Part shown: positions 27,375 to 29,535 of the stretch, one piece after another
Layout: the number at the start of each line of letters is the position of its first letter
Numbering within the stretch: position 1 is the stretch's first letter
Assembly: GCF_048403405.1 (NCBI RefSeq)
Contig: NZ_CP183129.1
Strand: one strand, 5' to 3'
Length of the DNA: 64,000 nucleotides
Origin: Escherichia coli
GTDB taxonomy: Bacteria > Pseudomonadota > Gammaproteobacteria > Enterobacterales > Enterobacteriaceae
Position numbers and translations under genes: made by a program
Notes under the pieces: model-generated
Seen by the model: the letters and a program-made list of their open reading frames with translations, nothing else
Told to the model about the DNA's origin: nothing
Databases searched by the model: none

Positions 27375-27495
27375 TTGACAACATCTGGTACGATTCGCCC
27401 GCAGCCATTACTGACCGCGGGCGAAAGTGTAAAGCAGGTGCCTTACCATCCTGACCTGACAACCGGATATGCGGGGATTGCTCCCCGCACAACGG

Positions 27496-27648
27496 CTACT
27501 TCTTCGGTTCGTAAGCGAGAACAGCCTTAAACTCAATATTACGTTCCTTCACCGTAAACTCACACAGCGAGTCGCGGACCAGAAGCGTAAATCCCAGCAC
27601 CGTTAAACACAGCACTATGACTGCCACAAGGGCATATTTCGTCAGCAT
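27496..27648 (-). CDS. hokE: Hok-family type I toxin
   Basis: 50-aa peptide [24 protein letters not shown]... with the Hok signature; the longer 62-aa ORF probably reflects the overlapping mok frame. Confidence 0.85.
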
Positions 27649-27745
27649 GTTTATATTGCCTCCATGCGAAGAAGGGACTACCATCCGAGTTGTTCAGGTT
27701 TGGGTAGGTAGCCCCAGGGTGTACTGACCCCAAAAAGTTGGACAG

Positions 27746-28597
27746 TTAAACACGAGGCATATAGGTCTGATTCCGATATTCAATTGGAGTCAGACCTTTT
27801 AATTTCAGGCTAATTCTTCTGCTGTTGTAGTATTCAATATATTCCGTAACAGCATCCTTCAGTTCGCTTATATTACTGAACTCATCAAGATAAAAACACT
27901 CCGACTTTAAGGTTCCAAAGAAACACTCCACCACAGCATTATCCAGACAATTGCCTTTTCTGGACATGCTTTGTTTAATACCATGTTCTTTAAGGATATT
28001 TTGATATCTTCTCATACGATACTGCCATCCCTGGTCAGAGTGCAGAACAGGATGCTCGTGAGGATTAAGCTTTTTGAATGCCTGATCGAGCATATTCTCA
28101 ACCATGTTCATCACTGGTCTTTCCGAAAGGCTGTAAGAAATAACTTCGTTGTTGAAGAGATCTATTACTGGAGACAAATACAGCTTGCGCCCATTGACTA
28201 CAAATTCAGTAACATCGGTAACCCACTTCTCGTTTGGCCGCGTAGCCTTGAAATCTCTTTGGAGAACATTAGGGGCGGTTTGCCCTACCTCTCCTCTGTA
28301 AGAGCGGTATCGCTTGACCTTAATCGCTGCTTTAAGTGAGAGGGTTCCCATCAGGCGCTGAACAGCTTTATGGTTAATCTGTTTCCCTTCTCGATGAAGA
28401 GACAGCGTTACCCTACGGTATCCGTATCGGCCTCTATTCTCGTGATAAATCTCACCAATACGCTTTTTAACGTCCGCATACTTGTCAGGCTTGCTGAGAG
28501 CCTTTAGATGGTAATAAAACGTACTGCGCGGTATCTCCGCAGCCCTGAGAAGCTCATCAAGAGGATAAAACTGCCTTAGCTCGTTGAGTACTTTTAC
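27746..28597 (-). CDS. insK: IS150 transposase OrfB (expressed via -1 frameshift from insJ)
   Basis: DDE-transposase-like ORF in IS3-family arrangement; 5' boundary approximate (the ORF track shows only the 201-aa Met-initiated part). Confidence 0.8.
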
Positions 28598-29115
28598 TTT
28601 TTCGTGGGATGAGCTAAGGCTTTCAGCTTTTTTAGATACATAAGCCGCGTTTCAAGAAATCGAACTTGCCTTTCAAGATCCTCAATGCGTCGGTCTTTTG
28701 ACAGCTCCAATGCTGATGCCGCTTTTTCTGGATCAACTGATATTGCAATGTTTCTTTTGGTGCCAATCTTGAGCGCGCGTAAACCAGCTTCTCCGCGCTC
28801 TTCATAGACCTTCAGCCACCTGGCTACAGAACCACTACCAGCAAGCATAAAGTGAGCAGCAGCCTGATTAAGGGACATGTGCTGCTCGATCACAGCTTTC
28901 ACGACCTTAATACGCAACTCTGGATCAGCACTAACGCCTTTAGGTTTGGGAATTAAACCTTTTTCTCCATGTTTTTCATAGAGGGCAACCCATGTCCTGA
29001 CCTGGGTTCGGGGGACACCAAAACGTGCCGAGATGATCCTGTAACCATCATCAGTTGTGAAGTAGTGATTCACGACTTCAAGGCGCTTTTCAAAAGGGTA
29101 TTTTGGCTTTGACAT
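28594..29115 (-). CDS. insJ: IS150 transposase OrfA (HTH)
   Basis: 173-aa ORF MSKPKYPFEKRLEVVNHYF... recognised as IS150 InsJ. Confidence 0.9.
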   Translation of the reverse strand: MSKPKYPFEKRLEVVNHYFTTDDGYRIISARFGVPRTQVRTWVALYEKHGEKGLIPKPKGVSADPELRIKVVKAVIEQHMSLNQAAAHFMLAGSGSVARWLKVYEERGEAGLRALKIGTKRNIAISVDPEKAASALELSKDRRIEDLERQVRFLETRLMYLKKLKALAHPTKK

Positions 29116-29535
29116 ATTAGGGGCTATTCCATTTCATCGTCCAACAAAATGGGTGCAGTACAGGGTTGATAGAAATATCTCCTGGGGCTTCATCTTTCCA
29201 GACCTCAGAGTAAACCTGAAACCGGAAAGCTTCAGGCACCCGCCGTTATCTTACCCTTCCTCAGCAAAATAGCTGTTTATTTATACAGTGAGTCCTGTTT
29301 CGGACTTCTCACTCCTAATTTGATCAACTGAAGCTGAACCCGTTTTTTTCTGCATGCCTCAATCGTCAAAATTCTTCGCCACCAGCCAGCTCTGCCATAA
29401 CTTGTCACATTGCAAAAGTAGCCAAATTGCTTCAGTCACCATCACCAAAAAAAAGAAACATTCCAGAACTTCCGCATCTCGCCCAGCCGCTCCGACTTCT
29501 ATACTGAATAGAAAACGCCAACATAAGAGAAACCT

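Follow-up and report, generated by a model that had tools for sequence, protein, structure and literature searches.

IS150 within sokE of Escherichia coli: a known polymorphic allele at a probable preferred insertion site

A complete IS150 interrupts the antitoxin gene sokE in the stretch of Escherichia coli DNA studied here, a window of 64,000 nucleotides whose positions are used throughout. The structure is the published polymorphic allele sokE::IS150 and is already known: PMC11551753 describes it from XL1-Blue and over 400 natural isolates, assigns it a phenotype and regards the antitoxin gene as disrupted. We consider it very likely that the allele has originated repeatedly, at a target for which IS150 has a strong preference.

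Structure of the insertion

The insertion lies in the entD-ybdK intergenic region, which occupies 27375-29535 in full (2161 bp). IS150 (27720-29162, minus strand) is exactly 1443 bp in length and is identical to the K-12 copy at 1439 of 1443 positions, differing at the other four. Its terminal inverted repeats are imperfect (TGTACTG...CAGTACA) and have 5'-TG...CA-3' ends; IRR (27720-27750) adjoins the hokE-proximal flank, and IRL (29132-29162), located by inverted-repeat detection, is at the high-coordinate end. The element is flanked on both sides by GGG (27717-27719 and 29163-29165). Empty sites in K-12 and other genomes read CCCCAGGGTTGATAG and contain a single GGG, and the window minus IS150 and one GGG aligns to these sites without gaps. 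At one junction, the flank CCCCAGGG runs into the IS150 end, TGTACTG. None of the IS150-plus-GGG structure can be due to chance. A preliminary description had read a complete IS150 with intact ends and a 3-bp GGG duplication from the window, and the single GGG of K-12 and other uninterrupted genomes confirms that reading. An assembly artefact was considered and ruled out, because the same sequence recurs in many independent complete genomes.

The element carries two overlapping reading frames, orfA (28594-29115, minus strand; 173 amino acids, identical to K-12 InsJ) and orfB (27746-28651, minus strand; 301 open codons, with two residues differing from K-12). The orfB frame, which contains the DDE transposase, is made together with orfA via a -1 frameshift at an A AAA AAG slippery heptamer (A6G; 28627-28633, minus strand; IS coordinates 530-536), and the NCBIfam model for IS3 transposases, NF033516 (cut-off 160 bits), matches it at 356.8 bits. 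The orfA/orfB region is annotated by PGAP as 'programmed frameshift', and a sequence identical to this IS150 copy is called an IS150 family transposase in the RefSeq annotation of strain 746. The copy is intact and, as predicted from its sequence, probably active.

Division of the hokE/sokE locus

The hokE coding sequence (27496-27648, minus strand) specifies 50 amino acids identical to RefSeq WP_000956470.1 (HokE), with two substitutions relative to K-12 HokE. Its length is that of Hok-family toxins (~50 amino acids), and its entD/ybdK synteny is as in K-12. NCBIfam Hok models match the ORF in the window with E=1e-14, yet fall under their curated cut-offs. The start codon of hokE (ATG at 27648, minus strand) is thus 71 nt from IS150, in agreement with the preliminary description, which placed the element ~70 bp upstream of hokE, in the part of the locus that holds the hok leader and Sok. 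The transposase genes of IS150 and hokE are co-directional on the minus strand.

By alignment, the insertion corresponds to K-12 positions 607,765-607,767 and so falls inside sokE as annotated in K-12 (607,733-607,792, which is 44-103 nt upstream of hokE). IS150 follows nt 28 of the 60-nt SokE RNA and interrupts the 5' arm of the stem that forms the terminator, where the motif stretch of wild-type sokE reads GCCCCAGGG; intact SokE is predicted to fold into a terminator hairpin of -23.8 kcal/mol. A putative sokE promoter (27656-27684, plus strand; -35 TTGCCT at 27656-27661 and -10 TACCAT at 27679-27684), proposed from the sequence and the 5' end of K-12 sokE, is intact and directed toward IS150. 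Through alignment with K-12 sokE (b4835), the 5' 28 nt of sokE, which form the antisense recognition part, were placed at 27692-27719 (plus strand), and the 3' 32 nt (nt 29-60), with the remaining terminator hairpin and the U-rich tail, at 29166-29197 (plus strand). No intact sokE is present: the promoter and nt 1-28 (together 27656-27719) are severed from their own terminator, the 3' part is now 1.4 kb from the promoter, and SokE retains its promoter and 28 nt and has lost its terminator hairpin.

On the hokE strand, IS150 separates nt 79 of the mRNA leader from nt 80. The first 79 nt (29163-29241, minus strand), placed by an Rfam RF01794 alignment in which model position 1 is at 29241, include the initial hairpins along with the tac-type 5' element, GGGUGCC, which is conserved. 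The hokE mRNA 5' end is on the far side of IS150 from mokE/hokE, and these 79 nt are displaced by 1.4 kb from mokE/hokE together with the presumed hokE promoter (29242-29285, minus strand; -10 TAAGAT at 29248-29253), which was read from the sequence and is conserved with K-12. The RF01794 leader is unbroken in K-12 (84.4 bits). In the window it consists of a 5' half (29241-29163) and a 3' half (27730-27640, 20.5 bits) with IS150 between them, and a 63.7-bit 'full-length' match in the window extends into IS150 sequence.

The putative mokE start (ATG at 27684), assigned by analogy to the annotation of mokC, is untouched by IS150. The in-frame upstream extension that it opens (27649-27684, minus strand; 62-amino acid ORF, 27496-27684) is still joined to hokE. 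The preliminary description had put the insertion where the hok mRNA 5' end, the mok frame and Sok would lie; sokE itself is indeed hit, but the mok start is not, and the mRNA 5' end is 79 nt away. Its broader suggestion of a disrupted locus holds, in that both the hokE leader and sokE are split by IS150, and comparative alignment places no intact copy of the regulatory region elsewhere.

The opposite side of hokE is undisturbed. A palindrome in the hokE 3' UTR, GGGGATTGCTCCCCGC (27474-27489), identified by sequence comparison as the IS186 site of K-12 and E. coli B, is vacant and intact, as is a hairpin located in the interval from entD to the 3' end of hokE (27394-27425; inverted-repeat detection), the probable hokE mRNA terminator. 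In K-12, IS186 lies 18 bp beyond the stop codon of hokE, where the target is a GGGG(N)CCCC palindrome; element, hot spot and side of the gene all differ from those of the IS150 insertion in the window. The preliminary description, which had named an IS186 at the corresponding K-12 locus, was therefore correct as to the intergenic region but not as to the target.

Predicted effects on expression

The 5' element of hok mRNAs governs their folding and translation. We propose that the 5' arm of the SokE terminator stem received an intact IS150 by transposition, which left the 3-bp duplication typical of this element. From the resulting architecture, the normal ~400-nt hokE mRNA and the 60-nt SokE would no longer be makeable, so that the toxin-antitoxin pair would no longer be a regulated module. 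Expression of hokE, if any, would come from co-directional read-through from IS150. The sokE promoter would probably give rise to a chimeric RNA of ~115 nt, from 27692 to near 27805, that ends at a terminator-like hairpin within IS150 (27763-27797, plus strand, antisense to orfB). This hairpin, which has a 15-pair stem in the predicted fold, lies ~45 nt inward of IRR, with TTTAATTTCA after it; transcription from the sokE promoter could end there.

We infer the net effect on toxin output from the sequence. The published phenotype suggests that the allele is not simply null, because sokE+ suppresses RecA-dependence (PMC11551753). It is conceivable, though doubtful, that hokE is deregulated rather than silenced, with transcription running on out of IS150 and from the upstream hokE promoter to yield an mRNA that lacks 5' inhibitory pairing, a weaker SokE, and low-level HokE. 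Such an outcome would fit the shared direction of IS150 and hokE, the failure to find any terminator-like site on that strand from orfB to mokE, the intact mok start and hokE coding sequence, the location of the anti-SD element of the R1 model upstream of the insertion point (PMC9841398), and the reversal of the sokE::IS150 phenotype by sokE+. However, a consensus scan of the IRR end found no outward promoter capable of driving hokE, and the best hand-picked hexamers were poor; the allele is tolerated by ~10% of genomes; and the remaining 28 nt of SokE may still be able to pair with the target. Transcription of IS150 is also weak, which counts against deregulation.

The locus resembles hok/sok of R1 in having a 5' tac element, an upstream mok frame, and an antisense Sok with a 3' terminator hairpin (PMC9841398). 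Unlike the R1 system, the locus in the window is physically split, and no post-segregational killing function has been shown for chromosomal hokE.

IS150 at other hok/sok loci

IS150 occurs at the homologous point and in the same orientation in sokC (target-site duplication GGT, 446 junction carriers) and sokB (GTT, 637 junction carriers). In Superficieibacter and [Erwinia] mediterraneensis, IS150 is located 73-75 nt upstream of hok homologues. The position is common to sokE, sokC, sokB and three hok loci of other genera, and this sharing of a site among paralogues and genera supports a target-specific hot spot. The preliminary description had suspected a recurrent insertion site, and the same point is occupied in many genomes, in paralogues and in other genera. 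A scan for IRR in one genome per species returned six matches, of which one is an obvious K-12 contaminant, and this number could not support a motif logo.

Reversed copies are rare. A single genome has IS150 in the opposite orientation at sokE, where it occupies a mirror-image motif on the other arm of the stem with IRR again adjacent, and rare reversed copies at hokE come with adjacent deletions or are at other sites. The chromosomal hok loci of K-12 that IS elements have inactivated include sokA::IS150 and those with IS186 beside hokC and hokE (Pedersen and Gerdes 1999, as cited in later work). As in the window, IS elements break the regulatory regions of this gene family and spare the toxin ORF, and the sole IS150 of K-12 is at the equivalent point of sokA; the hokE locus of K-12 differs in being hit by IS186 in the 3' UTR and not by IS150 in sokE. 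The sokA copy, which has an adjacent deletion, does not fit a simple rule, because its orientation is opposite and it lacks a duplication. E. coli B (REL606/BL21) shares both the orientation of IS150 and the exact hokE-proximal junction, but there the copy is decayed: IS150 is split by IS1, ~165 bp are deleted on the promoter side, and IS186 is present downstream of hokE.

Insertions of the same kind have appeared during laboratory culture. The IS150 hot spots of laboratory evolution (trg/mokB, hokC/nhaA and insA-7/hokE; PMC5289635, PMC5419217) are likewise hok/sok intergenic regions, although these arose anew in derivatives of E. coli B, whereas the window has a naturally fixed allele. The trg-mokB interval was hit 10 times in mutation-accumulation lines (PMC5289635), and de novo insertions at hokC/nhaA were placed at 16,972 (PMC5419217), which coincides exactly with the GGT duplication of natural sokC::IS150. 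The trg/mokB and ldr coordinates of PMC5419217 use another reference (REL4536 for trg/mokB); on REL606 they fall in chaB and trg, and natural sokB::IS150 genomes served in their place.

As part of the preferred explanation, we regard it as very probable that IS150 has a target motif, GCCYCRKNN, kept in Sok terminators, with IRR adjoining the motif, the last 3 nt of the motif duplicated, and orientation specified. With less confidence, but on balance in its favor, we propose that IS150 is target-specific across paralogues and genera, its favored site being nine nt into GCCYCRKNN in the Sok terminator stem. The carriers of the motif are homologous, and its conservation may reflect homology of the targets rather than reading by the transposase. 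By rough arithmetic from place counts, about one-quarter of the IS150 copies in complete E. coli genomes are at Sok sites. Our literature search found individual cases mentioned but did not find a shared nucleotide-level site or motif.

Could selection, rather than target preference, explain this uniformity? IS150 would then land widely in the leader, and insertions at any other position or orientation would be lost as inviable, for example because here the IS150 hairpin gives truncated SokE a new terminator. The terminator-like hairpin just inside IRR on the sokE strand agrees with this idea, as do the rare reversed hokE copies and the K-12 sokA copy, with their adjacent deletions or other sites. 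We nevertheless judge it improbable, since selection was minimal in the mutation-accumulation lines in which the trg/mokB hot spot was struck 10 times, and since the lone reversed sokE insertion, at a mirror-image motif adjoined by IRR, is what a sequence-directed rule predicts.

The nearest precedent for recognition of the Sok terminator stem by IS150 might be IS1397 and ISKpn1, which are also of the IS3 family and whose insertions likewise fall at one set point of a palindrome that is short, GC-rich and repeated (PMC1525189). Their target is the REP palindromic unit, whereas that of IS150 is the Sok terminator. For IS1397, the transposase has been shown experimentally to set specificity (PMC1525189), while for IS150 such specificity is proposed from sequence and, indirectly, from mutation-accumulation data. 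A different kind of target, resembling the ends of IS150 itself, was also considered. Insertion targeted to inverted repeats in this way is known for IS911. This candidate was rejected after comparison by hand of the flanks with IRL/IRR, which gave 9/25 and 3/7 matches.

Frequency and spread of the allele

Among 5426 complete E. coli genomes, the whole structure is present in 502 and the junction in ~550, and the site is uninterrupted in 4941, these counts not being phylogenetically independent. The published allele is likewise an IS150 in sokE, and its more than 400 isolates agree with the 502-550 genomes here, a further carrier strain being MS 69-1. The window differs from it in having another IS150 allele (4 SNPs) and another flank haplotype and in lacking IS186 downstream of hokE. 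An exact match to the 2161-bp region of the window occurs in 13 genomes, whose hosts (dogs, gulls, chickens and humans) and countries are unrelated. Six genomes match the window at ~100% over 24 kb, and a second lineage, 1.2% diverged overall, has an identical 7.9-kb tract containing IS150.

In five carrier haplotypes, the flanks differ by 2-8% and the IS150 copies by 0-4 of 1443 positions. Differences between flanks lie 11-31 bp from the junctions, and two IS150 alleles are mixed across flank haplotypes in all combinations. As judged from these sequences, IS150 is much younger than the haplotypes that flank it. Gene conversion among IS150 copies could, however, make an old insertion look young. 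When sokE::IS150 with this junction was built in silico on K-12 sequence, the product was 100% identical to many natural genomes across 2516 bp.

One genome, FDAARGOS_1371, has a tandem hokE1-hokE2-IS150 locus. After removal of one 503-bp unit from this locus, its left flank is 99.7% and its right flank 100% identical to the window. Derivation of the window from such a tandem would need a crossover within ~10 bp of IS150, and the IS alleles differ.

Without any hot spot, one ancient insertion could have spread by descent and recombination while gene conversion kept IS150 uniform. Consistent with this, junction, duplication and orientation are uniform in every carrier examined, and recombinational spread is real, as seen from the identical 7.9-kb tract in a diverged background. 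But a single origin is very unlikely in the face of flank differences so close to both junctions of an identical IS150, the free combination of IS150 alleles with flank haplotypes, the same position being struck in sokB, sokC, sokA and other genera, and the de novo events in laboratory lines. In addition, a K-12 laboratory strain appears to have gained the same insertion: the sokE insertion of XL1-Blue is, in the words of its report, 'exactly as' in natural isolates (PMC11551753). A transposition private to this strain shortly before sampling, which the perfect duplication, the intact IS150 and its far lower divergence than the flanks among carriers might suggest, is refuted at the strain level by the 550 junction carriers, the 13 identical genomes from unrelated hosts and countries, the 24-kb matches and the tract common to a 1.2%-diverged lineage. 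The insertion is neither recent nor private to the strain, and the 'relatively recent' transposition of the preliminary description is wrong at that level. Repeated origin at a preferred target thus remains the preferred explanation, and the allele has very probably also been inherited vertically and through recombination.

Significance

Because it has been published and is present in about one-tenth of sequenced E. coli, sokE::IS150 is an ordinary allele. In itself it is of little weight, being common and affecting a chromosomal toxin-antitoxin locus of doubtful function. It does call for caution, since automated annotation calls hokE an intact toxin gene despite its split regulation, and the Rfam 'sok' model scores above threshold in the window although the regulatory RNA is split; strain differences in the state of hokE/sokE are therefore hidden. 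According to one study, such a difference alters a recA-dependent viability phenotype.

The allele also shows how precisely IS150 can land: the element strikes the same nucleotide of the Sok terminator repeatedly, in several paralogues and genera. If this target specificity is true, the decay of hok/sok loci would be chiefly the work of IS150, for which these loci would be a safe harbor.

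IS150 and its target site

The IS150 element, located by its sequence and by comparison with K-12, is 1443 bp in length (27720–29162) and lies on the minus strand, co-directional with hokE. It occupies the intergenic region between the end of entD (27374) and the start of ybdK (29536), which also contains the hokE coding sequence (27496–27648, minus strand). A repeat search identified imperfect terminal repeats at 27720–27750 and 29132–29162, and these are flanked on both sides by a GGG target-site duplication (27717–27719 and 29163–29165). Four positions differ from the E. coli K-12 copy in sequence comparison. 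The orfA product (173 amino acids) is the same as that of K-12, the A AAA AAG frameshift site is retained, and the NCBIfam IS3 transposase model matches the open orfB frame at 356.8 bits. It is a full IS150 member. Removal of the element and one GGG gives a gap-free alignment to K-12 and other genomes, whose empty sites (CCCCAGGGTTGATAG) have a single GGG. These results bear out, in every measurable respect, the preliminary description of an IS150 with flanking GGG upstream of hokE. The same comparison addressed whether the hok/sok region is intact elsewhere, and found it split by IS150 instead.

Disruption of the hokE leader and sokE

In the K-12 annotation, sokE is a 60-nt antisense RNA gene on the opposite strand, 44–103 nt upstream of the hokE start codon. 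Carrying these coordinates across through alignment places the insertion after SokE nt 28, in the 5' arm of the terminator hairpin predicted by RNA folding. On the hokE strand, the mRNA leader is interrupted between its nt 79 and 80. The hokE side of IS150 retains the hokE ORF and 3' UTR, the putative sokE promoter (27656–27684), the in-frame upstream ATG corresponding to mok (27684), and SokE nt 1–28 (27692–27719). The presumed hokE promoter, leader nt 1–79 (29163–29241), and SokE nt 29–60 (29166–29197) are on the far side; promoters and transcript ends are those indicated by K-12 annotation and family alignments. The locus is hokE/sokE with neither a continuous leader nor an intact Sok, and neither hokE mRNA nor SokE can now be encoded in one piece.

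The Rfam "sok" model RF01794, which is built on the hok-sense leader and not the Sok RNA strand, matches K-12 continuously (84.4 bits). Its match in the window is split into a 5' part running from 29241 to IS150 and a 3' part at 27730–27640. A hit at 29086–29241 on the minus strand (63.7 bits versus a gathering score of 59) is real only in its 5' half; it would not exceed the family threshold without the 3' half, where the model aligns to IS150 sequence. Such an above-threshold hit across a split leader is a trap for automated annotation.

In the R1 model, folding is governed by a 5' tac element, an anti-SD box, and a 3' fbi element, and the processed mRNA is the form bound by Sok (PMC9841398). 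By analogy, the regulated hokE/SokE circuit would be lost. The earlier suggestion that hokE regulation is probably disrupted is supported at the level of locus architecture. A terminator scan found no terminator-like site after orfB on the hokE strand, and because IS150 is co-directional with hokE, read-through of the element could still yield a mokE/hokE transcript that lacks the upstream inhibitory partner. In the other direction, the putative sokE promoter reads into the right inverted repeat (IRR) and then a strong hairpin with a T-rich tail (27763–27797), identified by hairpin search and folding, which makes plausible a chimeric RNA of ~115 nt that would keep the 28-nt antisense segment. 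The net outcome may be a low, deregulated level of HokE, or it may be hokE silence. The published phenotype relative to sokE+ (PMC11551753) argues that sokE::IS150 is not strictly neutral.

Relationship to K-12, E. coli B, and the published allele

The preliminary description placed an IS186 at the corresponding K-12 locus. It does lie in the same intergenic region, but at a different target on the opposite side of hokE, 18 bp beyond the stop codon and within a GGGG(N)CCCC palindrome; this palindrome is uninterrupted in the window (27474–27489). E. coli B (REL606) has IS186 at the K-12 site and IS150 at exactly the junction seen in the window. In REL606 (region 3043–4946 in local coordinates of comparison locus L011) the junction IS150 is split by IS1, and the flank on the hokE promoter side has lost ~165 bp; three IS elements (IS150, IS1, and IS186) are thus present in one small locus.

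The window allele is the published, and hence already known, sokE::IS150. It was reported in the K-12 laboratory strain XL1-Blue "exactly as" in >400 natural isolates, and a sokE+ revertant was recovered (PMC11551753).

Frequency and recombination

At least 80% of the whole 2161-bp structure occurs in 502 of 5426 complete E. coli genomes. A 200-nt hokE-proximal junction probe matches 550 of these genomes and the uninterrupted sokE site is found in 4941, the counts being of genomes and not of independent events. An exact match to the 2161 bp of the window is found in 13 genomes; these come from several continents and from dog, gull, chicken, and human hosts. With 550 junction carriers and these 13 exact matches, the view that the insertion is relatively recent is untenable at the strain level.

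Six genomes (OX030728.1, MS 69-1, TUM1226, TUM14771, 4621, and GN02461) match the window at ~100% over 24 kb. A second group, to which strain 746 belongs, differs from the window by 1.2% across these 24 kb and shares with it an identical 7,949-bp tract (27124–35072) that includes IS150, so the allele has also moved or been retained through recombination mosaics. Across 7376–41170, divergence from strain 746 (locus L013) is a mosaic typical of recombination: ~2% over the ent/fep genes (7.4–27.1 kb), zero from hokE to ybdG and pheP (27124–35072), a diverged patch at 35–37.5 kb, and near identity thereafter.

Other features of the window

Colinearity with strain 746 stops at 41170, and 41171–48364 is a different island from the vgrG/T6SS toxin island of that strain. 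It encodes a 1069-amino acid ORF (42786–45995, minus strand) that matches no Pfam family and, next to it, an AbiEi/AbiEii type IV toxin-antitoxin pair (46290–48000). This large protein beside a defence-type module may merit separate study. Of a second IS150 there remains only a 325-bp left-end fragment (48365–48689), the same in sequence as the first copy and cut off by an 820-bp IS26 (48690–49509; transposase, 278 bits against NF033587). Directly after IS26 are an N-terminally truncated nfrB-like glycosyltransferase gene (49525–51543) and nfrA (51509–54502). The fragment and truncated gene bordering IS26 point to an IS26-mediated rearrangement or deletion. Between fepA and entD, 26589–26695 has a REP-type hairpin, which partially matches naRNA4 below threshold (38.2 bits), and an ES036/CssrF sRNA match (42.2 bits versus a threshold of 37.6).

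One insertion or many

The junction, duplication, and orientation are the same in every carrier examined. Five carrier haplotypes differ by 2–8% across 600 bp of flanks, with the nearest differences 11–31 bp from the junctions, and their IS150 copies have 0–4 differences per 1443 positions. Two IS150 alleles occur at sokE, the window type (four SNPs, two OrfB substitutions) and the K-12 type, and these combine with left and right flank types in all combinations. An in-silico K-12 locus with K-12's own IS150 placed at this GGG is 100% identical over 2516 bp to many natural genomes. From these patterns, repeated insertion at one sokE site is the simpler reading, since a single old insertion behind all carriers would need gene conversion of the IS and, in addition, recombination that broke only a few bases from each end. 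The literature agrees with repeated insertion, as in XL1-Blue sokE::IS150 (PMC11551753).

In many genomes the region from entD to ybdK holds two tandem copies of the whole hokE/sokE unit, with a period of ~503 bp and two slightly different HokE proteins. Examples, in local coordinates, are NY1601 (L004, 853–2070), 042 (L005, 854–2082), and FDAARGOS_1371 (L007, 1001–1847), the last with IS150 in the ybdK-proximal copy. The window corresponds to the FDAARGOS_1371 locus minus one repeat unit (left flank 99.7% and right flank 100% identical) and carries the other IS150 allele.

The same site in paralogues and other genera

Homologous insertion points in hokC, hokB, and hokA were predicted by leader alignment with hokE and then tested. 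At sokC, natural genomes have IS150 at the homologous point in the same orientation, with a GGT duplication and both IS alleles; the junction probe matches 446 complete E. coli genomes. The duplicated bases are REL606 16,972–16,974, and 16,972 is the coordinate at which three laboratory lineages were reported to have gained IS150 de novo (PMC5419217). At sokB, IS150 is at the homologous point with a GTT duplication and, in some genomes, an adjacent deletion (junction probe, 637 complete E. coli genomes). Mutation-accumulation lines, in which selection is weak, gained IS150 between trg and mokB ten times (PMC5289635). The sole K-12 IS150 is at the equivalent point in sokA; it is oppositely oriented, lacks a duplication, and is accompanied by a deletion.

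IS150 lies 71–73 nt upstream of the hok ATG in sokE, sokC, and sokB, exactly nine nt after the start of a stem motif derived from these homologous targets (GCCCCAGGG, GCCTCGGGT, and GCCTCGGTT), with the IRR adjoining the motif. Roughly a quarter of the IS150 right ends in the genome collection (~1,670 of ~6,000), by a rough estimate from place counts uncorrected for shared ancestry, are at the sokE, sokC, and sokB junctions. Among the 5426 genomes, only USML2 (locus L022, 2318–3760) has the opposite orientation at sokE. Its IS150 interrupts the opposite arm of the SokE terminator stem and is flanked by a TCC duplication, and the other strand reads GCCCCAGGA and then IRR, the mirror image of the usual motif–IRR rule. 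UID2309220003 (L021) has yet another IS150 allele, which is oppositely oriented and lies 24 nt upstream of hokE.

A scan for the IS150 IRR in one genome per species found six ends. Three of them, one in Superficieibacter electus and two at separate loci in [Erwinia] mediterraneensis (L024, L027, and L028), lie 73–75 nt upstream of hok homologues, with junctions GCCTCATTC and GCCTCAGGT directly abutting the element; two are elsewhere, and one is a K-12 sokA contaminant. The last is a 454-bp contig labeled "Methylobacillus sp. MM3" (NZ_LXTQ01000012.1, L025); its IS150 flank matches 39 of 40 nt of the K-12 sokA::IS150 junction, and the contig probably entered that assembly as a contaminant from E. 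coli K-12. Right ends near hok homologues in two other genera extend the association of IS150 with hok/sok beyond E. coli.

IS elements in K-12 hok loci (Pedersen and Gerdes 1999, as described in citing papers), the trg/mokB hot spot, and IS150-disrupted sokA and sokE are already in print. In the literature searched, no statement was found assigning all these insertions to a single nucleotide-level site with a common orientation and motif. Two IS3-family elements that insert specifically into REP sequences, IS1397 and ISKpn1 (PMC1525189), offer the nearest mechanistic precedent, and the generalization of the hok/sok hot spot is the only part of these observations that has some novelty.
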